A stretch of 64,000 nt of DNA. It comes from Methylococcaceae bacterium. GTDB taxonomy: Bacteria; Pseudomonadota; Gammaproteobacteria; Methylococcales; Methylomonadaceae. Made by a program: the position numbers and the translations under genes. Shown here one piece after another: positions 24,436 to 36,981 of the stretch (positions are counted from its first letter, which is position 1; each line of letters begins with the position of its first letter). The notes beneath the pieces were generated by a model that saw only the letters and a list, made by a program, of their open reading frames with translations, made no database searches and was not told the origin of the DNA. The stretch covers positions 8,942-72,941 of the forward strand of contig JABFSH010000067.1 in NCBI GenBank assembly GCA_013140705.1. The letters run 5' to 3'.

Positions 24436-25899
24436 TTACTTGCGATTAAACAATCCAACCAAATGACCGAGCCGGGCAGCTCGCTCATGCGTGAGTTGAT
24501 CCCAATGAAAGCGCCAAATCCAATTTCCTGTTGTTGTTCCTGGGGTATTCATGCGATGTTCGGAACCCAATTCCAGAATATCCTGCATAGGAATTATCGC
24601 CAAGTTCGCTACTGAAGCGAGTGCCGCATGAATCAAAGCACAGTGAAGCGAAAGTGATGGACTACCCAAATAATCGTAAATGTATTTTCTTTCATGATCA
24701 CTCAATTTTTGCAGCCATCCAATGGTCGTATCATTATCGTGAGTACCCGTGTAGACAACGCAGTTTTTGACATAATGATCGGGTAAATACGGGTTATCGG
24801 CATTGCCACCAAACGCAAACTGCAATATCTTCATGCCGGGCAAATTGAAGTCATCTCTCAGTTCTTCTACATCGGGTGTTATTATGCCCAGATCTTCGGC
24901 GACCAGAGGAATTGATCCAAGCGCCATTTTGATGGCTTCCAATAACGCTTTTCCGGGCGCCTTCACCCAGTAACCATTGACAGCCGTTTCTTCGCTTGCC
25001 GGAATTTCCCAAGCCGCTTCCAAACCACGAAAATGATCAATCCTGAGAATATCAAAAATCTCTAATTGCGTCTCCATCCGCTGAACCCACCAGGAATAGG
25101 CATTCTTGTCTAAATAACTCCAATTGTAATGGGGATTTCCCCAGCGTTGCCCGGTAGCCGAAAAGTAGTCTGGCGGTACGCCCGCCACAACCGACATTTC
25201 GCCGATTTCATCCAGCTTAAACACGTGGCGATTGGCCCATACATCAGCGCTGTCATAGGATACAAAAATCGGAATATCCCCAAAAAGCAGGACACCTTTT
25301 TCATTGGCGTAGGCTTTTAACTCTAACCATTGCCGGAAAAAAACATATTGTTCAAATTTAATACATTCAATTTGCGATTTTAAACGATGTCGGGTTTCTT
25401 CCAGCGTCTGAGGATGTCGTTCTTTACAAGGTTCCGGCCATTGATTCCAGCTTTGTTGATTAAAAAGATTTCTAAGCGCCATAAACAAGGCAAAGTCATC
25501 CAGCCAAAAGGCCTTTTCCGAACAAAATCGAGCAAACTCCTTTCTATCCTGCTGAGTTGCACGATCCAAAAAGCCAAAATAAGCCTTGTCAATCAGACAA
25601 TTTTTTTTGTAAGCCAGCGTTCCACGGCAGGTTTCACATAGCTCAGACTTATCCAGCCAACCTTGACTGATTATACGTTCAACACTGATAAATGTCGGGT
25701 TACCGGCATGAGCCGAAAGACATTGATAGGGTGAGCCATCGGTATGGGTCATGCCTAATGGCAGTGTCTGCCATACGGTTATCCCACAATCATGAAGAAA
25801 ATTAACGAAATAATATGCATCCTGACCTAGATCACCGCCGGGCAGAGAAGAAATATGGAGTAAGATGCCTGCTCGGCGTTGATCTAAAATACCATTCAC
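24436..25899 (-). CDS. malQ: 4-alpha-glucanotransferase (amylomaltase)
   Basis: A 487-aa GH77-type sequence (GILLHISSLPG, YFSATGQRWGNP, DHFRG). GTG start. Confidence 0.92.
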   Translation of the reverse strand: MNGILDQRRAGILLHISSLPGGDLGQDAYYFVNFLHDCGITVWQTLPLGMTHTDGSPYQCLSAHAGNPTFISVERIISQGWLDKSELCETCRGTLAYKKNCLIDKAYFGFLDRATQQDRKEFARFCSEKAFWLDDFALFMALRNLFNQQSWNQWPEPCKERHPQTLEETRHRLKSQIECIKFEQYVFFRQWLELKAYANEKGVLLFGDIPIFVSYDSADVWANRHVFKLDEIGEMSVVAGVPPDYFSATGQRWGNPHYNWSYLDKNAYSWWVQRMETQLEIFDILRIDHFRGLEAAWEIPASEETAVNGYWVKAPGKALLEAIKMALGSIPLVAEDLGIITPDVEELRDDFNLPGMKILQFAFGGNADNPYLPDHYVKNCVVYTGTHDNDTTIGWLQKLSDHERKYIYDYLGSPSLSLHCALIHAALASVANLAIIPMQDILELGSEHRMNTPGTTTGNWIWRFHWDQLTHERAARLGHLVGLFNRK

Positions 25900-25913
25900 A
25901 CGCTAGTCTCTTG

Positions 25914-27584
25914 TTAATGTTCAAATCCAGGTCGCATGGCCCCACCCATAGCCGGTTCACCAGAACCCTGAGTAAATGACAACGCCAGGTAGGCTGGTGG
26001 TTCCTGACCCAGCAATTTATAGAGATTCGCCAAATTAAGCCGGAATTGTCGTTCAAAATTACTGACCGCTTCTCCGGGATTATAATCACCAAACCACCAA
26101 AACCAGTCGGAGCCTTCACAAATAGCAAGTTGAATGTCCGCCTCTTGCACTTGTTTCTCGGTCAACTGATTTGCAGCTAAAGCCGAATCGTAAGTCTTTT
26201 TAGCGTCGCCTAGCATATCCCAACCACGATTTTTATCAGAACTACCTATCCAGGTTGAAAATGTACCATAAACCCAGCTACCCGCCACCAGTTTATATAA
26301 AGGCTTAATTTTGTCTTTAGGCTTCAAGCAGTCTGAAAATGTGCTCAATTCAATGACTGGATGATTAGTGAGGCGATTGTATAAAGTACTTAAGAAATAA
26401 TAGCCGTTTTCCGGAAAGTATTCCCACGCATTTTCACCGTCCATGATAATGGAAACCACCGCATCGGGCCTATGGGCCGCTATATTTTCTAAATGATGAA
26501 TTAAATCGCTGACGGCATCATCCGCATGCCATTTCGAATATTCAAAACCAATCAAATCGGACAAGCCGTCATCTCTAAAGAAAATGGCTGTCTTGATCTT
26601 GTTGAGCCTAAATGGGTAGTGCATGCCTGGCGAATTATCGTTTTCAACAAGGTTAAAACTATTATGTAAAACTGAACCGCCACTGGCAGTCCAATCAAAT
26701 CCATAATTAGCCAATATTTTTAAAGTTTGCTCACTAATCGCGCCCTCGGATGGCCAGCAGCCTTTTGGTTTGTAGCCAAAAAAGCGCTTAAAAATTTGCA
26801 GGCCTTTTTCAATTTGCCATTCTACTCGCTCCTTACCACCCGAATAAGATTCCATATCCGGCATGGTAGCATTCGGCATTGCTTCATGAGTGCTTTGCAA
26901 ATCCAGCAATAGTGGCATGATCGGGTGTGCGTAAGGCGTCACTGAAAGTTCAATTTGACCTCTTCTAGCCAACACTTTGTACCGCTGTAAAACCGTAGAA
27001 AGTAGATCTCCGATAATTTGCATCAGTTCGGTTCGATCATGCTGGTTATAATTTGATCCCTTTTCGATTAAATGCATGATCCGACTATCATTCAATTTTA
27101 TCGATTCCCCCATCCACGCCAGATGATACCAAACCAAGATGTCATGAATGAATTGAGAATTCACATAGCTCAATGCATCGAAATGATGATCAAGCCATTC
27201 GGTCATTTCAGCCAGTTTTTTAAAGTGAGGATACCTATTGATCTGTCTTTCCCGGTTTGCTCTCAAACAATCTTTAACCAGCTTAAGACGTTCTTCCTGA
27301 TTTTCAGGAACATTTTGACTGACAAGCGCGGCTAAAAATGAGTCTTGAATTTGACTGCCATTGCGTAAGTAACCATTGACTTGTCGTGCATATTCCTCAA
27401 TCTGCTCCAGTAAAATAGGGGCAAAATTCACCACCACCCTGGCTTCCGGCATGGCTTCAAGATGAGACACCATATCCACGTAATCCTTAATTACGTGTAG
27501 ATAACTCCATGGCAATATAAACTCACCCGTAGCGAGATCGCGATATTCGGGCTGGTGCATGTGCCAGCATAAAACCAGCTTCAC
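25914..27584 (-). CDS. Glycoside hydrolase family 57 protein (amylase / branching-enzyme type)
   Basis: The N-terminus VLCWHMHQPEYRD and the overall 556-aa architecture are typical of GH57. It lies between glgC and malQ with gaps of 6 and 14 nt. Confidence 0.85.
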   Translation of the reverse strand: MKLVLCWHMHQPEYRDLATGEFILPWSYLHVIKDYVDMVSHLEAMPEARVVVNFAPILLEQIEEYARQVNGYLRNGSQIQDSFLAALVSQNVPENQEERLKLVKDCLRANRERQINRYPHFKKLAEMTEWLDHHFDALSYVNSQFIHDILVWYHLAWMGESIKLNDSRIMHLIEKGSNYNQHDRTELMQIIGDLLSTVLQRYKVLARRGQIELSVTPYAHPIMPLLLDLQSTHEAMPNATMPDMESYSGGKERVEWQIEKGLQIFKRFFGYKPKGCWPSEGAISEQTLKILANYGFDWTASGGSVLHNSFNLVENDNSPGMHYPFRLNKIKTAIFFRDDGLSDLIGFEYSKWHADDAVSDLIHHLENIAAHRPDAVVSIIMDGENAWEYFPENGYYFLSTLYNRLTNHPVIELSTFSDCLKPKDKIKPLYKLVAGSWVYGTFSTWIGSSDKNRGWDMLGDAKKTYDSALAANQLTEKQVQEADIQLAICEGSDWFWWFGDYNPGEAVSNFERQFRLNLANLYKLLGQEPPAYLALSFTQGSGEPAMGGAMRPGFEH

Positions 27585-27590
27585 AAAGCG

Positions 27591-28856
27591 CTACCTGACA
27601 TAGTGTAGTTTTTGTCCCAACATCTCGGGCGTCACCAATACGACACCGCCTTCGCTGACATGAAATCTTTTTTTATCTTCCGCGAGATTTTCACCAATGA
27701 TCGTTCCTTCAGGCACGACACAATTTTTTTCGATGATCGCCTTGGTGATGCGGCAATTACGACCGATATTAACTTCCGGTAAAACAATACTGTCCTGTAC
27801 AGTGGTATACGAATTGACTCGTACATTTGAGCATACCAGGGAATGTCTGATGGTTGCCCCCGAAATAACACAACCACCTGAAATCATGGAGTCTACCGCC
27901 ATACCGCGTCGATCGTCCTCATCGAAAACAAATTTTGCCGGCGGCGTTTGTTCCTGATAGGTCCAGATTGGCCATGTTGTGTCATACAAATTCAAATCGG
28001 GCTTAACGCTGACTAATTCCATATTGGCCGCCCAATAAGCATCGATGGTTCCTACATCACGCCAATAACTTTGCTCGCCACTTTGCAAATCCAGGAATGG
28101 ATAGGCATTAACAACATATTTATCAATGACCGAAGGAATAATATCCTTACCAAAATCATTCGTCGACGTTTTGGTATCGGCATCCTTGAGCAGTTGTTCC
28201 CACAAAAAGCCGGCATTGAATATATAAATACCCATCGATGCCAAGGCGGTGTCGGTACGACCCGGCATTACCGGTGGGTTTGCTGGTTTTTCTATGAACG
28301 CCTTAACTCTACGACTTGAATCAATATCCATAACGCCAAATGCGGTCGCATCTTTTAGCGACACCTCAAGACAACCTATTGTCAAATCCGCTTTTTTTTC
28401 AACATGGTCGGCCAACATGGATGCATAATCCATCTTGTATATATGATCGCCGGCCAGCACCAAAATGTATTCCGGCTTACGCGTACGAAGAATATCAATA
28501 TTCTGAAAAATGGCATCAGCCGTACCTTTATACCAGGATGTCTCGTCAATTCTCTGCTGAGCCGGCATTAAATCAACATATTCACCAAACTCACCACGTA
28601 AAAATCCCCAACCCTGTTGAATATGCCGTATCAGTGAATCCGCTTTGTATTGTGTCAGTATACCAATTTTACGGATGCCGGAATTTACGCAGTTGGATAA
28701 TGGAAAATCGATAATTCGAAACTTGCCACCAAAAGGTACTGCTGGTTTTGCGCGCCAATCCGTCATATTCATTAAGCGTGAACCACGACCTCCCGCCAGA
28801 ATTAAAGCTATTGTATTTCGAGTTAACTGATGGATATTATGACTTGACGCCGACAT
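27591..28856 (-). CDS. glgC: Glucose-1-phosphate adenylyltransferase
   Basis: It has the [12 protein letters not shown] motif and a left-handed beta-helix C-terminal half. ATG 28856 ([13 protein letters not shown]) is preferred to the track start at 28886. Confidence 0.93.
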
Positions 28857-28947
28857 TTTACATCTCCAAGTGGAATAAACTGACAATTAGTGTTGCGTTT
28901 GGTAAGATTTGCTGAACAACCATTTTACTATACTGAGGCTCAACAAA

Positions 28948-31344
28948 GTGAAAAAGCGTTCAAATAATACACTTGACTCCGATTCAACAAAAATCGCAGG
29001 AGAAAGCACAGTTGATTCGGCTGATACAACAGCTAAAAAAACCAGCAAATCAACTTTTTCAAGTACGGATGCCCAAAAATCAAAAAACACGGAAACATCC
29101 ACAAAAAAAGCAGCAGACTTATCTGAAATAACTGAATCCAAAATCGTTGTGAAATCTGAACCTTCAAGCCGAATCCCTGCGCCGGCGCCTCTTGATGCCG
29201 ATTGTGTAAAAATCGTTGAAGCCCGACATCACGATCCTTTTTCAGTTTTGGGACGTCATCAAAAAAATGATCAAATACAAATAAAAGTTTACCTGCCCTA
29301 TGCAGAAACCGTTCGTTTAGGTAGCAACGGCCCCTATTTGAATCGAATTAGTGGCACCGATTTTTTTGTCCATGAAACTTCCATTGGATCATTTCCCTCG
29401 GAACATTACAAATTATCCTGGCTGGACAAAGACGGCTATAGCCACGAGAACTATGATCCTTATGATTTTGGAACCCAGTTGCCCGAATTTGACCAGCATT
29501 TATTTGGCGAAGGCAGGCATTGGCACGTTTATAAAAAACTGGGCTCTCATATTCATACCGTCGACGGTATTGATGGTGTGCTATTTGCCGTTTGGGCGCC
29601 CAATGCCTCTCGTGTCAGCTTGGTTGGCGATTTCAACCACTGGGACGGTCGCAACAATCCGATGCGCAATTTGGGTGGAAGCGGCATCTGGGAAATCTTC
29701 ATCCCTGGACTCAAAGCAGGTTCTTTATACAAGTTTGAAATTTTAAATCGTGATACGAATGAAATTCTGGTAAAAACCGACCCCTACGGACAACAGTTCG
29801 AATTCCGTCCGGCAACATCGTCCGTCGTCATCAAGGAAGGTACTTATGTATGGCAGGACGTACAATGGATGTCGCAACGCGTCAAACATGATTGGCTACA
29901 TGAGCCGATGGCCATTTATGAAGTCCATCTAGGGTCATGGCGACGTGATAATCAGGGCAACTTCCTTGGCTATCGAGCGCTTGCTCACGAGCTGGTGGAC
30001 TATGTTAAAAATATGGGCTTTACCCACATCGAATTATTACCGGTTACAGAGCATCCGCTCGATATTTCCTGGGGTTATCAAACTACGGGCTATTTTGCAC
30101 CGACCAGTCGCTTTGGCTCTCCGGATGATTTTCGCTTTTTTGTTGATGCCTGTCATCAAAACAACATCGGCGTCATTCTCGACTGGGTTCCTGCCCATTT
30201 TCCAAAGGATTCGTTTGCGCTGGCGCGTTTTGACGGTAGTCCACTGTACGAGCATGAAGATCCGCGTAAAGGCGAACACCGCGACTGGGGCACACTGATT
30301 TATAATTTTGGCCGTAATGAAGTAAAAAACTTTTTGCTTGCCAGCGCCATTTTCTGGCTTGAGGAATTCCATCTGGATGGTTTGAGGGTTGATGCTGTGG
30401 CGTCCATGTTATATCTGGATTATTCCCGCGAAAATAATGACTGGATTCCCAACATGTACGGTGGCAACGAGAATCTTGAAGCGATCGACTTCCTGAGAGA
30501 ACTGAACACAGTCACCCACGATCAGCATCCGGGCACTGTGGTTATGGCTGAAGAGTCCACAGCCTGGCCACAAGTAACCCGTCCGACCTGGACCGGTGGC
30601 CTGGGTTTTTCAATGAAATGGAACATGGGCTGGATGCACGACACACTTGCCTATATGAGCGAAGAACCGATTCATCGAAAATACCATCACGATCAGCTGA
30701 CTTTCGGCATGCTTTATGCTTTTACTGAAAACTTTGCCCTGCCTTTTTCTCACGATGAGGTTGTGCATGGCAAAGGTTCGTTACTCAATAAAATGCCGGG
30801 AGATGAATGGCAGCGCTTTGCCAATCTGAGATTGTTGTATACCTATATGTATACCTATCCCGGTAAAAAATTATTGTTCATGGGCTGTGAATTCGGACAG
30901 GGTACGGAATGGAGTTCCACCAGTTCACTGGACTGGTATGTACTGGATTATGCACATCACCGCGGTCTACAAACACTCGTCAAAGACCTAAATCATATCT
31001 ATAAAACGCATCCGGCTCTGTTCTCGCATGATTTTGATCATCATGGTTTTGAATGGATTGACTGCCACGATGTACAGCAATCAGTCATCAGCTATCGCCG
31101 AAAAAATAAATTTGAAGAATTAATAGTTGTTCTCAATTTTACGCCGGTGCCCAGAGAAAATTATCGCATTGGAGTTCCTGAGCCCGGAACCTATACCGAA
31201 ATTTTCAATTCGGACTCCAAATATTATGACGGCACAAATCTAGGTAATGGCGCCACGTTATCAGAACCTGTCAACTGGATGAACCAGCCGCATTCCATTA
31301 ATCTCTCTTTGCCGCCTTTAGGCGCTGTAATTTTAAAGTTATAA
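28948..31344 (+). CDS. glgB: 1,4-alpha-glucan branching enzyme (GH13); start uncertain
   Basis: The canonical GlgB core runs from [11 protein letters not shown] onward. GTG 28948 follows GAGG at 9 nt and adds an S/T/K-rich extension of about 65 aa. GTG 29149 would give a canonical 731-aa protein but has no visible SD. The track start is TTG 28909. Confidence 0.88.
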
Positions 31345-31362: not shown

Positions 31363-32796
31363 ATGAAAAAAGTACTCTTCGTAACCAGTGAAGCACATCC
31401 TTTAATCAAGACCGGCGGTCTGGCAGACGTTTCTGGTAGTCTGCCAAAGGCACTGGCCGAATTGTCGCAGGATGTTCGCTTGATCATTCCCAAGTATCAG
31501 GCATTAAAAATTAGCGGCGAACTTCGCTATGTCTGCTCACTTCGCGTTGACAATAAAAATGTCAAAATTCTGGAAACGCGCATGCCCGGCAGCCCGGTTA
31601 CCGTCTGGTTAGTCGACTATCCCGGTTATTTTAATTATCCGGGCAATCCCTATGTTGACGAACTCGGTGAACCTTGGCCTAATAACGCGGAACGCTTTGC
31701 GCTTTTCTGTCGCACAGTGGTCGAAGTTGCCATGGACAGAGTCCACCAGGACTGGAAACCTGATGTCGTTCACTGCAATGACTGGCAAAGCGGCCTGGTT
31801 CCCGCTCTGTTATCGCTGGAATACGATAGACCATCGACCGTATTCACCATACATAACATGGCCTATCAGGGCTTGTTTCCAGGTACAACTGCAGCGACCT
31901 TAAACATGCCCGGTCAATTGATGCACCCATTGGGTCTTGAATTTCACAGCATGCTGTCTTTTATTAAGGGCGGCCTGGTTTATTCGGATTACATCACAAC
32001 TGTCAGTCCAACATATGCACTCGAAATTCAAACGCCGGAATTTGGCTATGGCCTTGAAGGCTTACTGGATCACCGCAAGGAATTTTTAGGCGGTATTATC
32101 AACGGCATTGACCTGGATCAATGGAATCCCAAAACCGATACGTTAATCAGCCAAAATTTCACTGAATCAACGCTCAGTAAAAAGCAGGTCAATAAATCGG
32201 CATTACAGAAAAAAATGGGGCTCCCGGTCAACGGCCGTATCCCGTTGTTTGGTCTGATTGGTCGCCTGGTCGAACAAAAAGGCATTGATTTGATTCTCGA
32301 CAGCCTTCCCGAAATGTTGACCATGCCTCTACAATTTGTTCTGCTTGGCAGTGGCGACAAAGCCTACGAGAAGCTACTGGAAGCTCTGGCGCAATCCTAT
32401 CCCGACAAGATTGCTTTAAACATCGGCTATAACGAGGAACTGGCACATTCGATCGAAGCCGGTGCAGATATATTCCTGATGCCGTCCCGATTTGAACCCT
32501 GCGGATTAAACCAGATGTACAGCCAGCGCTACGGCACCATTCCCATCGTCAGAAAAACCGGCGGACTGGCCGATACCGTCGTCGATGCATTGCCACACAC
32601 CATCGCCGATAACACCGCTACCGGCATTATTTTTAATGAGGCAACGGCAGGCTCCTTGCTCGAAAGCGTCAAACGGGCGCTACTTTTATACAGCAATGCA
32701 GAGATCTGGATAAAGCTTCAGACCGCCGGCATGAAAAAAGATTTTTCCTGGCAACAAAGCGCCCAGCGCTACTTAGCTGTCTACAACAATTTGTAA
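31363..32796 (+). CDS. glgA: Glycogen synthase (GT5)
   Basis: It has KTGGLADV at the N-terminus, is 477 aa long and starts 18 nt after glgB. Confidence 0.93.
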   Translation: MKKVLFVTSEAHPLIKTGGLADVSGSLPKALAELSQDVRLIIPKYQALKISGELRYVCSLRVDNKNVKILETRMPGSPVTVWLVDYPGYFNYPGNPYVDELGEPWPNNAERFALFCRTVVEVAMDRVHQDWKPDVVHCNDWQSGLVPALLSLEYDRPSTVFTIHNMAYQGLFPGTTAATLNMPGQLMHPLGLEFHSMLSFIKGGLVYSDYITTVSPTYALEIQTPEFGYGLEGLLDHRKEFLGGIINGIDLDQWNPKTDTLISQNFTESTLSKKQVNKSALQKKMGLPVNGRIPLFGLIGRLVEQKGIDLILDSLPEMLTMPLQFVLLGSGDKAYEKLLEALAQSYPDKIALNIGYNEELAHSIEAGADIFLMPSRFEPCGLNQMYSQRYGTIPIVRKTGGLADTVVDALPHTIADNTATGIIFNEATAGSLLESVKRALLLYSNAEIWIKLQTAGMKKDFSWQQSAQRYLAVYNNL

Positions 32797-32926
32797 CAAT
32801 CCCGATCCCATTCCCAGTGAAAAGGACTTTAGCTGGGAAACCATCCTTTTTTGCCAATAACGCCGAGATATTCTGTTATCGCCAAGCTGGTCATCAATTC
32901 ACCGCCTGACAAAGAGGAAACCTTGT

Positions 32927-34441
32927 ATGAACAAGATCCAGCTTCTGTATGTAGAAAATGTGATTACCCGAAAAAAACGCTCGGCCCAGCAGCAACTGTC
33001 GTTTTTTATGGTGCTGGAAAACTTAGGTTTCGACAAGCAGGTCGACGTTATCTGGCGTGGAGAGGATGCGGTATGGCACACATTACCCGCCAGTTTTCAC
33101 AGCCATCTGCAGCCCAACAAGGAATATTGGCTTGCCCAAATCACTCGCGAAGGCTCTTCCGAGCAATCGCTGCCCGGTAATATCGAGTTTGCTCTGCGTT
33201 ATCAGTGTTCAGACCAGGAAGTCTGGGATAATAACGAGTCAATGAATTATTCCAGTCAGGCAGATTCCGGCATCGTAATCGTCCGTGACCGGCAATTGCA
33301 GAATATTGACTTCTGCCCTGCATTTCATGAAGGTCAAAAATACCTGCCTGTCACGGTTGCTGTTGACCAGTCTCTTCATGCCCAGAAAGTAACAATTCAC
33401 TGGACGACTGATAATTGGCTCAGTAGCCATAAAACGTCCTGCCATTTCAAACGAAATTATTGGGACAAAGCGTATTTGAGTAACGCCCGAAACCCCAATC
33501 AGTATGGTGTCGAACTTTGGAAAGGCTGGCTAAAAGTAGCCAATGCCTTCCATGTGCAATACAGCATCGCCTGTGAAAGCCAGGGCCAGGTTTTATGGGA
33601 AAACAATACCGGCACTAATTATTCCGTCTCACGCAGCAAACCGCTAACCGTGCTAATCCTCAATCTACATTGTTATCAGGAAGACAATCAGGATTACAAA
33701 TTTTCCCAAATTGCCCGAGCCATTGACGAACGGCAGGTTGATATCGTCTGCCTTCAGGAAGTCGCTGAACTCTGGAATGATGGCTTAGGCAATTTCGAGA
33801 CTAATTCAGCCAAAATTATCAATGATCGCCTTGCTCAACCCTTTCTCCTTTATACCGACTGGTCGCACTTGGGATTTGATAAGTATCGCGAAGGAGTTGC
33901 CATTTTAAGCCGATACCCCATCATACGGCAGGATTCAAAATATGTGTCGGATACACACGATGTGTACAGCATTCATTCAAGAAAAGTCGTCATGGCCCAG
34001 ATCTTCATTCCCTTTATGGGACTGATTAATGTGTTCTCCGCACACCTGAGCTGGTGGGAAGATGGCTTTGCCCAGCAATTTAGCTGTTTACGCGATTGGG
34101 CGGATAGTGAGCAATCCGAATCCGTTAAAGCCACGCTGCTCTGTGGCGATTTTAATATTGCTGCCGGTTCAACCGGCTATCGTCTGGTGGTAGATGCTCA
34201 CGAATATGAAGACCAGTTTTTGGCTGCCAACGCTCACGGTGTGTTTGAGAAAGTTTTCAGGGTCAACGATCCGTATTGGCAAAACTATCTAGCTGAAGAC
34301 TATCGAATTGATTATATTTTCTTAAATAAAAACAATGATTTTCGTGTCACCTCAGGCGAAATATTATTTACGGAGCACGATTATGGGCGGGTTTCCGATC
34401 ACTGCGGCTATCTGATGACATTCGAGCCAGGTAGAAATTAA
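32927..34441 (+). CDS. Fusion of two CBM21-like glycogen/starch-binding modules with an endonuclease/exonuclease/phosphatase (EEP) domain
   Basis: Module 1 reads VLENLGFDKQVDVIW...IEFALRYQCSDQEVWDNNESMNYS. Module 2 reads VTIHWTTDNW...VQYSIACESQGQVLWENNTGTNYS. The EEP motifs CLQEV, GDFN and SDH are present. There is no signal peptide. GAGGAA lies 7 nt before the ATG. Confidence 0.75.
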   Translation: MNKIQLLYVENVITRKKRSAQQQLSFFMVLENLGFDKQVDVIWRGEDAVWHTLPASFHSHLQPNKEYWLAQITREGSSEQSLPGNIEFALRYQCSDQEVWDNNESMNYSSQADSGIVIVRDRQLQNIDFCPAFHEGQKYLPVTVAVDQSLHAQKVTIHWTTDNWLSSHKTSCHFKRNYWDKAYLSNARNPNQYGVELWKGWLKVANAFHVQYSIACESQGQVLWENNTGTNYSVSRSKPLTVLILNLHCYQEDNQDYKFSQIARAIDERQVDIVCLQEVAELWNDGLGNFETNSAKIINDRLAQPFLLYTDWSHLGFDKYREGVAILSRYPIIRQDSKYVSDTHDVYSIHSRKVVMAQIFIPFMGLINVFSAHLSWWEDGFAQQFSCLRDWADSEQSESVKATLLCGDFNIAAGSTGYRLVVDAHEYEDQFLAANAHGVFEKVFRVNDPYWQNYLAEDYRIDYIFLNKNNDFRVTSGEILFTEHDYGRVSDHCGYLMTFEPGRN

Positions 34442-34559: not shown

Positions 34560-36155
34560 ATGCAGTTAGCTGAACACTATGCCAGACCCATACATGGTAA
34601 TTTGGGTGGTTTTTTTTCAAGAGTCAACGATTACGGTGATTTATTTTACATTCGCTGGGGAAAAATTGACTTTGACGTATTTTATGGCGTTCAGGCCAAT
34701 GTAAAAGTCATTATCAAAGTGTATCGTGATCACAATATTCGTGAAACTTACGTCGTCGACACTGACGCTTACGATGTCCAGTGGGATCGCCATAAACGCC
34801 ATACACGCGACTTTTATATCCATCCTGTTTCAGCCAATTTTGGCCACATAAACTGCATCAAGTTTTCATTTATCGTTCACATGAACGAACACTCGATTGC
34901 CTCGCAAAACGATTACATTTTCATGGATTGGCATCAGTTGCAGGGTGATAAGCCCCAATACCGGCATATTACGTCGGAATGGGCCACCGCCAATAGCTAT
35001 CGCACTCATGAATTAAGTGCCGATACGTTACAGAATGACGTCGATTGGTATAATCACCACGTTGATTCACTGAGGCTTACCCCAAAATTTACCAAAGGCC
35101 AGTTATATCACCCGTATCACCCCAAACGCTTCATTCACGATCATATCGATAAAGTGATCCACAGCAAGCATGAAAATCCGGGTCGACTCTGCACCATCAA
35201 GGTCAGTGTCGATTGTATAGATGATTATGACTTTATTAACCATCTCATTCACGCCCATCATCAGGGCGTTTGTGTACAGTGTGTGGTTGACTGGCGAAAA
35301 ATGACTTTGACCAATAGCCAGAACTACGCCCGACTGAAGCGTTCCGGTATCGAATTGCTGGGTGTGTTTTGCACACCGAAACATCATCTGATTGAAGTTG
35401 AACCTGACATGCATACCAAATTCGTAATCTTTAATGACGATGACTGCATCCTGGGCTCATTCAACATCACATTTGATCGCTGGTGGGCAAATTGGGAGTC
35501 CGGTATGACATTTCATTCACGCGGCATTTGCCGTTTGCTGGACAATATCTTCCAGAGTCAGCGCGGCGGCGTCAACCAAAAATATGGCATCGACCCGCTG
35601 AGTCCGTTCAACTTGTTTTATACCTTCGGTCGGCATGCCATGATTAATGGCAAGTATTACAGGCCCCATCATGCCATATTAGCCGAAATCCATCGGGCCA
35701 GACATTCAATCAAATTATCGCTGTTCCTGATTGGCGAACTGCTGGGTGATCATCATGACAGCGTTATCGATGCCCTGATTCAGGCAAAGCACCGTGGAGT
35801 TTATGTGCATCTTCTGCTAAACGGACATCTGGCCAGACAAGGCCGCGTGGGTGTTGAACGCTCGATGCACGATGAATTAAACCGGCCGCTATTGCCTGCC
35901 GTGCAGCGTCTCAAATCGGCCGGCATCATAGTTGGTTTGGTCTATGGACAGGATGACCATAAGATTCCCTATTCGCCGATTCACTCCAAATATTGCGTCA
36001 TCGACGACACCATTGTCCTGGAAGGCAGCTTTAATTGGTACAACACATCCACTTTTTCCCATGACCTGGTGGTTTTGGTCAACAATCGTGAGATTGCGCA
36101 GCCTTATCTGTATGAATTCGAAGAAATTCAACGCTCGTTTAGGGTGTATTATTAG
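34560..36155 (+). CDS. Phospholipase D superfamily protein with two HKD motifs and an unassigned N-terminal domain of about 190 aa
   Basis: HKD1 is HTKFVIFNDDDCILGSFN (His at codon 285). HKD2 is HSKYCVIDDTIVLEGSFN (His at codon 475). There is no signal peptide. GAGGT lies 6 nt before the ATG. Confidence 0.8.
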   Translation: MQLAEHYARPIHGNLGGFFSRVNDYGDLFYIRWGKIDFDVFYGVQANVKVIIKVYRDHNIRETYVVDTDAYDVQWDRHKRHTRDFYIHPVSANFGHINCIKFSFIVHMNEHSIASQNDYIFMDWHQLQGDKPQYRHITSEWATANSYRTHELSADTLQNDVDWYNHHVDSLRLTPKFTKGQLYHPYHPKRFIHDHIDKVIHSKHENPGRLCTIKVSVDCIDDYDFINHLIHAHHQGVCVQCVVDWRKMTLTNSQNYARLKRSGIELLGVFCTPKHHLIEVEPDMHTKFVIFNDDDCILGSFNITFDRWWANWESGMTFHSRGICRLLDNIFQSQRGGVNQKYGIDPLSPFNLFYTFGRHAMINGKYYRPHHAILAEIHRARHSIKLSLFLIGELLGDHHDSVIDALIQAKHRGVYVHLLLNGHLARQGRVGVERSMHDELNRPLLPAVQRLKSAGIIVGLVYGQDDHKIPYSPIHSKYCVIDDTIVLEGSFNWYNTSTFSHDLVVLVNNREIAQPYLYEFEEIQRSFRVYY

Positions 36156-36183: not shown

Positions 36184-36981
36184 ATGTTGAAAAAGTTATT
36201 GTTGCTGTTTATATACAAAATACTTTTGAGCGTCAGTGCATTCGCAGACAGCACCGTCATTGAAGTCATACCCTTATACAACCGTCCGGCCTCCGAAATT
36301 CAACCCTTACTGAATCCCTTGCTGGAAAATGATGATCGAGTGATCGCCGATGGATCCAACTTATTGGTCCGAACCTCACCGATTCGACTGGCGCAAATAA
36401 AAGCCTTCATCAATAAACTTGATACCCATTTGAATGATTTGATTATCACGGTCATCCAAAGCCGACAGGCCACTGCTGAGGAACTGAATGCACAAATACG
36501 GGCACAAATATATCCGTCCGGCGGCAGTGTTGATGGGCATTATTATCAAACCCAGGATCGTAGCGATCACGATAACAGGCAGACGGTCAGAACCCTCGAA
36601 GGCAAACCGGCGTATATCAAAGTCGGCAATACCGTCCCTGTTCAAAACTATCAATCATACGTTACCGGCAATGGTTATGCCGGTGTATCCAGTTCGACCG
36701 AATTCGTTGAGGCATCCACCGGATTTGCAGTCACCCCGAGACTAACAGGGCAGCAAGTCATTCTTGACATAACGCCCTGGTCGGAAAATTTTGAAACGCG
36801 CAACCGCATTCAAGGCCAGCAAGTTCAAACAACGCTCACCGCCAATCTCGGTGAATGGGTTGGGATAGGCGGCATTGAGCAAAGTATGCAAGGGGGAAGT
36901 AACCAGCCGCTTGCCCGTAGTTGGCAGACGCATGACAATAGAATGCATGTGCTGATCAAAGTGGAAAAGGTTAACGAATGA
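36184..36981 (+). CDS. Small secreted secretin-like protein (NolW-like N-domain plus short secretin-type C-region)
   Basis: Signal peptide MLKKLLLLFIYKILLSVSAFA. The N-domain-like region reads VIPLYNRPASEIQPLLNPLL...LLVRTSPIRLAQIKAFINKLD. C-terminal segments (GFAVTPRLTGQQVILDI, TTLTANLGEWVGIGGIEQ, HVLIKVEKV) resemble secretin core motifs. GGAGG RBS. Confidence 0.55.
   Translation: MLKKLLLLFIYKILLSVSAFADSTVIEVIPLYNRPASEIQPLLNPLLENDDRVIADGSNLLVRTSPIRLAQIKAFINKLDTHLNDLIITVIQSRQATAEELNAQIRAQIYPSGGSVDGHYYQTQDRSDHDNRQTVRTLEGKPAYIKVGNTVPVQNYQSYVTGNGYAGVSSSTEFVEASTGFAVTPRLTGQQVILDITPWSENFETRNRIQGQQVQTTLTANLGEWVGIGGIEQSMQGGSNQPLARSWQTHDNRMHVLIKVEKVNE

Follow-up and report, generated by a model that had tools for sequence, protein, structure and literature searches.

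A tandem CBM21-EEP protein encoded beside the glycogen genes of a methanotroph as a candidate bacterial glucan phosphatase

All known α-glucan phosphatases, namely laforin, SEX4, and LSF2, are eukaryotic dual-specificity phosphatases (DSPs) (PMC13011383, 2025). They join one or more carbohydrate-binding modules (CBMs), which belong to families CBM20 and CBM48, to a catalytic domain of the DSP fold with its Cys-X5-Arg motif, and they act on insoluble or polymeric α-glucan. When glucan carries phosphate, degrading enzymes are hindered and branching enzymes, a bacterial one among them, have a lower affinity for their substrate; the process that places phosphate on glycogen is still unknown (PMC13011383). 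A different fold, that of the endonuclease/exonuclease/phosphatase (EEP) proteins, is used by the bacterial enzyme MapP of Enterococcus faecalis (EC 3.1.3.90), which, according to a second-hand account, takes the 6′-phosphate off maltose and whose gene lies directly downstream of malT (PMC3737437). MapP consists of a single domain of about 270 amino acids; its substrate carries the 6-phosphate on the non-reducing glucose of an α-1,4-glucoside, and it is encoded beside a maltose phosphotransferase system (PTS) and a maltose phosphorylase. The enzyme is said to prefer α-glucosidic disaccharides, and genes for a GH65 phosphorylase and a pgm product reportedly accompany malT-mapP. Another EEP-fold enzyme, the mannosyl-6-phosphatase BT3783 of Bacteroides thetaiotaomicron (PDB 4C1R), also takes a 6-phosphate off a glycan; its substrate is mannan, it has no CBM21, and it serves the periplasmic catabolism of a foreign polysaccharide. 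Here, we describe a bacterial gene that codes for two CBM21 modules followed by an EEP domain of the MapP type. It lies in a stretch of 64,000 nucleotides, in the following called the window, from a Methylococcaceae bacterium (GenBank assembly GCA_013140705.1, contig JABFSH010000067.1). On balance, we lean towards its product being a cytoplasmic, glycogen-anchored, Mg2+-dependent phosphomonoesterase that acts on phosphorylated α-glucan and is coupled to an HKD-type phosphodiesterase or transferase encoded by the next gene.

The open reading frame (ORF) starts with ATG and encodes 504 amino acids followed by a stop codon. Its parts are as follows.

32914..32919 (+): Shine-Dalgarno-like GAGGAA, 7 nt before the ATG, read from the sequence
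32927..34441 (+): coding sequence of the CBM21-CBM21-EEP protein, from the ORF, Pfam matches, and the AlphaFold2 (AF2) model
32927..33280 (+): CBM21 module 1, amino acids 1-118, from Pfam CBM_21, the alignment to PDB 2DJM, and the all-β model
33281..33640 (+): CBM21 module 2, amino acids 119-238, from Pfam CBM_21, PDB sequence matches, and the hhalign comparison with module 1
33641..34438 (+): EEP catalytic domain of the MapP/3TEB subfamily, amino acids 239-504, from PF03372, 3TEB, and the identity to MapP

When the whole protein is compared with Pfam, CBM_21 (PF03370) is matched in two stretches at 56.7 bits (cut-off 28.9) and Exo_endo_phos (PF03372) at 62 bits (cut-off 24.5), scores that far exceed chance. 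The AF2 model, which was built on 42 sequences, has a mean predicted local distance difference test (pLDDT) of 92.6 and a predicted template modelling score of 0.82, and consists of two all-β modules followed by an α/β EEP domain, as the first-pass annotation of this DNA, made from the sequence alone, had read the domain order. That annotation had also placed the protein in the cytoplasm, and this placement is upheld: no hydrophobic N-terminal segment was found in the protein and the first β-strand of the model begins at residue 4, so it is probably cytoplasmic. The protein is 100% identical to a protein (P0001) of a Methylococcaceae metagenome-assembled genome (MAG).

The EEP part (266 residues), scanned on its own, matches Exo_endo_phos at 64 bits (E 2e-17), and the QE, GDFN, and SDH motifs pointed out in the first-pass annotation are present as LQEV (amino acids 276-279), GDFN (407-410), and SDH (490-492) and are conserved in homologues. 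The complete catalytic set, N246, E278, H373, D408/N410, D462, and D491/H492, is nearly invariant across 42 relatives, stand-alone ones included. By sequence, the sole EEP match of the protein in the PDB is 3TEB (E 1e-21), a structural-genomics protein from Leptotrichia buccalis. A Foldseek search with the model gives 158 matches at E<=0.001; the top matches listed are all EEP-fold proteins, and 3TEB comes first (E 1e-19, template modelling score 0.81 over the target), well ahead of neutral sphingomyelinase (nSMase), TDP2, and others. BT3783 is among the matches as well, structurally much more distant at E 7e-11. The MapP comparator was an Enterococcus faecium gene that was retrieved from a plasmid search with the EEP domain and identified by synteny; it immediately follows a PTS IIBC gene, with a GH65 gene and pgmB in divergent orientation. 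Its product aligns with the EEP domain over the entire length at 33% identity (pairwise E 2e-30), and its only match by sequence in the whole PDB is again 3TEB (E 3e-37). Beyond the generic EEP motifs, the two have in common H248, E252, E322, R352, the motif S-x-H-x-SWW, and R460. Because of the end-to-end identity, the subfamily-specific residues, and the fact that both proteins match 3TEB only, the EEP domain, MapP, and 3TEB are assigned on sequence grounds to one subfamily, of which MapP is the one characterized member. In agreement with this, JGI, whose naming is KO-based, calls many homologues maltose 6′-phosphate phosphatase; NCBI calls some of them endonuclease, and otherwise the database names are generic or automatically transferred. 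A literature search returned no paper on a CBM21-EEP fusion or on 3TEB, and MapP, CBM21, and glucan phosphatases do not occur in the text covered of a large review on prokaryotic α-glucan enzymes (PMC11046441).

The N-terminal half was examined by scanning amino acids 1-120 and 121-238 separately against Pfam. Module 1 reaches 36.7 bits (E 5e-9) and module 2 reaches 38.4 bits (E 2e-9) for CBM_21, each above the gathering score, and the two are mutually homologous at profile level (hhalign probability 97.6%, E 3e-12). CBM53, which had been named as the family to be told apart from CBM21, scores at most 16.8 bits against a cut-off of 27.6, and CBM21 is preferred. All hallmarks claimed for the tandem modules are present: ENLGFDKQV at amino acids 31-39, WDNNESMNY at 100-108, and WENNTGTNY at 224-232, and they are kept in homologues. 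In the AF2 model, amino acids 1-238 are essentially all β-strand with a pLDDT of about 90 or higher, consistent with the β-sandwich required of such modules; the fold search was run on the whole protein. The CBM21 of Rhizopus oryzae glucoamylase (PDB 2DJM), to which module 1 can be aligned, binds its ligand through aromatics of site I (Trp47, Tyr83, and Tyr94) and of site II (Tyr32 and Phe58) (PMC3511584). Four of these five aromatic positions are retained in module 1 (site I, W50 and W100; site II, F35 and F57), the position of Tyr83 being taken by A89. Placed through the module-module profile alignment, module 2 retains W164 and W224 of site I and additionally F174, with H151 at the position of Tyr32. 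In homologues that share as little as about 40% identity, the equivalents of the binding aromatics are still invariant or almost invariant. In PDB sequence searches, module 2 is closest to the CBM21 of the protein phosphatase 1 (PP1) glycogen-targeting subunits PPP1R3B and PPP1R3C. The same Pfam/CAZy module, with the WDNN...NY motif and the aromatics of sites I and II conserved, is found here and in Rhizopus glucoamylase and PPP1R3A/B/C, but it is duplicated and fused to a phosphoesterase here, whereas its fusion partner elsewhere is a glycoside hydrolase or a region that binds PP1.

Two observations on the modules may be added. Compared with module 1 and with eukaryotic CBM21s, module 2 has an invariant insert, the loop SNARNPNQYG (amino acids 185-194; 33479-33508), whose strong conservation hints that it touches the catalytic domain, the phosphate of the substrate, or the partner protein. 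Furthermore, stand-alone bacterial proteins of about 262 amino acids exist that consist of two tandem CBM21 only (P0238, P0245, and P0436, e.g., Parachitinimonas caeni WP_284101052.1); this pair is related to the N-terminal half of the CBM21-CBM21-EEP protein.

The wider family bears on the substrate. An exhaustive search of 1.8 billion representatives yielded 1046 relatives, only about ten 50%-identity clusters of which have the full architecture of two CBM21 and EEP. Among 35 other multidomain EEP relatives, CBM25 is present in five, CBM26 in two, and CBM21 and an X25/CBM58-like module in one each, so that all carbohydrate-binding modules found in this set are α-glucan-specific; a nucleic acid-binding domain is present in none of the 35. 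Unlike the CBM21-CBM21-EEP protein, most of them have signal peptide- or lipoprotein-like N-termini. The EEP domain has thus been joined repeatedly and independently to starch-binding modules from several families, which is good support for the view that the subfamily works on phosphoesters derived from α-glucan. Several metagenomic relatives (P0146, P0213, P0216, and others) combine the EEP domain with CBM25/CBM26 and with aBig_2 and X25-like domains behind N-termini of the exported type. These may be exported starch-phosphate phosphatases, and extracellular enzymes of the kind hinted at by such fusions could help in processing phosphorylated starches.

Relatives occur in 380 species-level genomes, and the view of the first-pass annotation that CBM21 is mainly a eukaryotic module has to be corrected accordingly: it is not rare in bacteria. 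The best 80 of the 380 genomes are all from Methylococcales (Methylobacter, Methylomicrobium, Methylovulum, Methyloglobulus, Methylomarinum, Crenothrix, and Methylicorpusculum), and culturable strains are among the carriers of the module, such as Methylobacter tundripaludum SV96, Methylomicrobium lacus, and Methylosarcina fibrata. The full architecture is also found in Ca. Methylophosphatis (Sterolibacteriaceae), in Kiritimatiellia, and in one rotifer assembly record. A CBM21-EEP relative from an assembly record of the bdelloid rotifer Didymodactylos carnosus (P0136) and a 768-amino acid protein combining CBM21, Kelch, and EEP (P0193) point to horizontal transfer into eukaryotes or to contamination.

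The genes next to the CBM21-CBM21-EEP gene in the window are the following.

24436..28886 (-): malQ (GH77), GH57, and glgC, divergent, from Pfam matches and synteny
28909..31344 (+): glgB (branching enzyme), from GlgB_N, CBM_48, Alpha-amylase, and Alpha-amylase_C
31363..32796 (+): glgA (glycogen synthase), from Glyco_transf_5 at 271 bits; it ends 130 nt upstream of the EEP gene
34560..36155 (+): PLD-like partner gene, 531 amino acids, from PLDc_2, two HKD motifs, and synteny

A complete glycogen cluster, with glgB and glgA on the plus strand and glgC, GH57, and malQ on the minus strand, is thus situated directly 5′ of the CBM21-CBM21-EEP gene. The position downstream of glgB-glgA had been noted before and stands now that both genes are confirmed by Pfam. 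What had not been noticed is that the most constant neighbour is not glgA; it is the PLD-like gene. Among the 71 Methylococcales loci with enough downstream sequence, it is adjacent downstream on the same strand in 69, at a median gap of 98 nt; the two loci without it are those of Methylococcaceae UBA6146 (L050) and a Methylovulum MAG (L063). Across loci, the PLD protein is 71-88% identical, compared with 62-70% for the EEP protein. The pair is also adjacent and on the same strand in Ca. Methylophosphatis and Propionivibrio (both Betaproteobacteria) and in Kiritimatiellia (L081, L084, and L088). In Ca. Methylophosphatis (L081, 8976-14117) it is flanked by genes for a sucrose-6-phosphate-phosphatase-like protein and a PfkB sugar kinase, which is another carbohydrate-storage context. 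Linkage to glycogen genes was counted in the 42 loci with full 10-kb flanks, in 27 of which glg genes are adjacent. Two different arrangements occur: the order glgB-glgA-EEP-PLD on one strand, as in the window, is found in 22 loci, and a pair that is convergent with glgA-glgB is found in 16. The gap between glgA and the EEP gene, 130 nt in the window, is only about 8-15 nt in three loci (L060, L062, and L065). Neither the glgA-EEP gap nor the EEP-PLD gap of the window contains terminator- or promoter-like sites, with regional site counts not above shuffled expectation, and no Rfam family is matched at gathering score between 28000 and 37500; these results give no sign of a regulatory RNA or attenuator in the gaps. 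Co-transcription of glgA, the EEP gene, and the PLD gene appears plausible from this arrangement.

The partner protein matches PLDc_2 in two stretches at 119 bits. Its two HKD motifs, H285-x-K287 and H475-x-K477, lie in the segments HTKFVIFNDDDCILGSFN and HSKYCVIDDTIVLEGSFN, which are invariant in homologues; in the first motif, N stands at the D position of HxK(x)4D(x)6G(G/S)xN. The AF2 model is of moderate confidence (pLDDT 72). In Foldseek it retrieves two-HKD PLD structures at E 1e-15, and the bilobed PLD fold is apparent. The matches comprise the bacterial PLD 7E0M, vaccinia F13, PLD3/4, PLD1/2, and PPK1, and since they are only 14-18% identical, a specific activity is not assignable to the partner. 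With characterized two-HKD enzymes such as 7E0M, PLD3/PLD4, F13, and the C-terminal domains of PPK1 it shares the two motifs and the bilobed fold, but it has no close relative among them and differs in an additional N-terminal domain (approximately amino acids 1-136), which is strongly conserved and all β-strand in the model. It may represent a binding module of a new kind, with glucan or some other ligand as its target.

According to the reading that we favour, the two CBM21 β-sandwich modules would dock the protein on the α-1,4-glucan chains of the glycogen particle, and the Mg2+-dependent EEP domain would hydrolyze phosphate monoesters on glucosyl residues, either in the outer chains of glycogen or in released phospho-oligosaccharides. 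The most likely position of the phosphate would be C6, by analogy with MapP, because the substrate of MapP is the 6′-phosphate of an α-1,4-glucoside. The EEP protein and the downstream two-HKD enzyme would act as a two-gene module, in which the partner would probably perform a phosphodiester step: it would either cleave a diester to expose the monoester or transfer a phospho group. With its phosphate removed, glycogen would remain readily used by branching and degrading enzymes. A precedent for a glycan phosphatase of the EEP fold is given by BT3783, and this is counted in favour. The design logic would be that of laforin, SEX4, and LSF2, a phosphatase joined to carbohydrate-binding modules, and the proposed role, removing phosphate that hinders branching and degrading enzymes, would be shared with them by analogy. 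In contrast to these DSPs, the catalytic domain here is a metal-dependent EEP domain and the binding modules are CBM21; the protein has neither a DSP match in Pfam nor a CX5R motif. The comparison with laforin and SEX4 on another fold had already been drawn in the first-pass annotation, and it gains from the kinship with MapP and from the starch-binding modules of the sister proteins.

Several points weigh against this reading. A literature search found no documentation of covalent phosphate in bacterial glycogen, and we know of no enzyme that installs it. With identity to MapP at no more than about 33%, the enzyme may have a different substrate, and the EEP fold includes phosphodiesterases and nucleases, with TDP2 and nSMase among the fold matches. 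No glg gene is present within 10 kb in 15 of the 42 fully flanked Methylococcales loci or in the betaproteobacterial and Kiritimatiellia loci of the EEP-PLD pair. As for the partner, its N-terminal domain has no Pfam match even at E<=1, and a diverged CBM21 has been rejected as its identity, the hhalign probability against both modules being below 1%. In Methylomonas rapida (CP113517.1; L087, 8001-9593), moreover, a partner gene whose product is 78% identical has no CBM21-EEP gene or remnant within 8 kb; therefore, the partner can exist uncoupled, at least locally.

Among the alternatives, the protein might be a MapP-type enzyme proper, acting on small soluble molecules (maltose-6′-phosphate or short phospho-maltodextrins, for example), with the polymer not being a substrate and CBM21 only concentrating the enzyme near glycogen or binding the oligosaccharide itself. 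MapP is the closest characterized relative, JGI applies its name, and the products of the neighbouring malQ, GH57, and glg genes make and consume malto-oligosaccharides. We nevertheless regard it as rather unlikely: unlike mapP, the gene belongs to a glycogen cluster and has an HKD gene as its partner, no maltose PTS (malT) or GH65 is found among the genes scanned around this and related loci, and two tandem polysaccharide-type CBMs, a supplement that brings the protein to 504 amino acids, would be unnecessary for a disaccharide. To our knowledge, obligate methanotrophs do not import maltose by a PTS, and without such import the source of maltose-6′-phosphate would again be phosphorylated glycogen. 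If, on the other hand, the EEP domain were a phosphodiesterase, it could, together with the HKD enzyme, remove or remodel a substituent that is attached through a phosphodiester, either to glycogen itself or to a molecule associated with it; glucan-P-glucan bridges, decorations of the phosphoglycerol type, and lipid head groups would be examples. The two folds are classically those of phosphodiesterases (TDP2 and nSMase for EEP; PLD, PLD3/4, and F13 for the partner), and the tight pairing suggests sequential steps on one phospho-linkage. Yet the EEP domain matches the MapP/3TEB subfamily only in the PDB by sequence and possesses the additional residues conserved there (H248, E252, E322, R352, H373, and R460), and we know of no phosphodiester-type decoration of bacterial glycogen, which makes a diesterase quite unlikely. 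A further version keeps the phosphatase and assigns to the pair a reversible covalent phosphorylation of glycogen, installed by the HKD enzyme via a phospho-histidine intermediate and removed by the EEP protein. We treat it as a long shot; if it were true, the pair would correspond in function to the plant GWD/SEX4 cycle while relying on wholly different folds, and bacterial glycogen would be phosphorylated on purpose.

Two readings do without a glucan phosphoester. In one, EEP and PLD proteins would form a nuclease pair for defence or DNA processing, and the CBM21-like modules would bind a ligand other than α-glucan. It is fed by the endonuclease names at NCBI, by a match to the TIGR exodeoxyribonuclease III model (weak at 23 bits against a cut-off of 99), and by weak matches of the PLD protein to DrmC/NucT models. 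Every nuclease match in NCBIfam is far below cut-off, however, and PADLOC returns nothing for the EEP protein and generic HKD matches only for the PLD protein; on these results a defence or nuclease module was judged unlikely. No other defence genes are adjacent, in many species the pair is highly conserved and keeps its synteny in core-genome surroundings, and CBM21 is an α-glucan-specific family whose binding aromatics are retained, so that a nuclease pair is very improbable. In the other, the protein would be mainly a non-catalytic glycogen scaffold or regulator that recruits other enzymes in the manner of the PP1 glycogen-targeting subunits. The likeness of module 2 to PPP1R3B/PPP1R3C speaks for it; the EEP catalytic residues, however, are invariant and under strong purifying selection, and the protein contains no match to the RVxF PP1-docking motif ([RK][VI]x[FW]), which leaves a scaffold barely credible. 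The phosphomonoesterase acting on phosphorylated α-glucan stays our preferred reading.

On this reading the CBM21-CBM21-EEP protein is a candidate for the first bacterial, non-DSP enzyme removing phosphate from glycogen. If the assignment is correct, a glycogen-tethered glucan phosphatase of the EEP fold would be an independent invention of the solution found by the eukaryotic DSPs, and bacterial glycogen would carry phosphate that needs management. The co-conserved HKD partner would be a concrete candidate for the other half of this phosphate chemistry. Genetic tools exist for some Methylococcales methanotrophs and the module is present in culturable strains of this order, so the question is directly testable.

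Some minor features of the locus remain to be mentioned. Downstream of the PLD gene, an ORF of 265 amino acids at 36184-36981 (+) has a signal peptide-like N-terminus and partial matches to Secretin_N and Secretin. It is much shorter than secretins of the GspD/PilQ type, the profiles of which are about 430-600 positions long, and next to the EEP-PLD pair it is found in no related locus; the glcDEF genes 3′ of the PLD gene are likewise not conserved with the pair in related loci. At the other side of the cluster, the N-terminus of glgB (28909-29190, +) would, if the TTG start is real, add a Ser-, Thr-, and Lys-rich extension of about 95 residues in front of GlgB_N. Long GlgB proteins are also encoded in related loci, for example, one of 833 amino acids in Methylosarcina fibrata.

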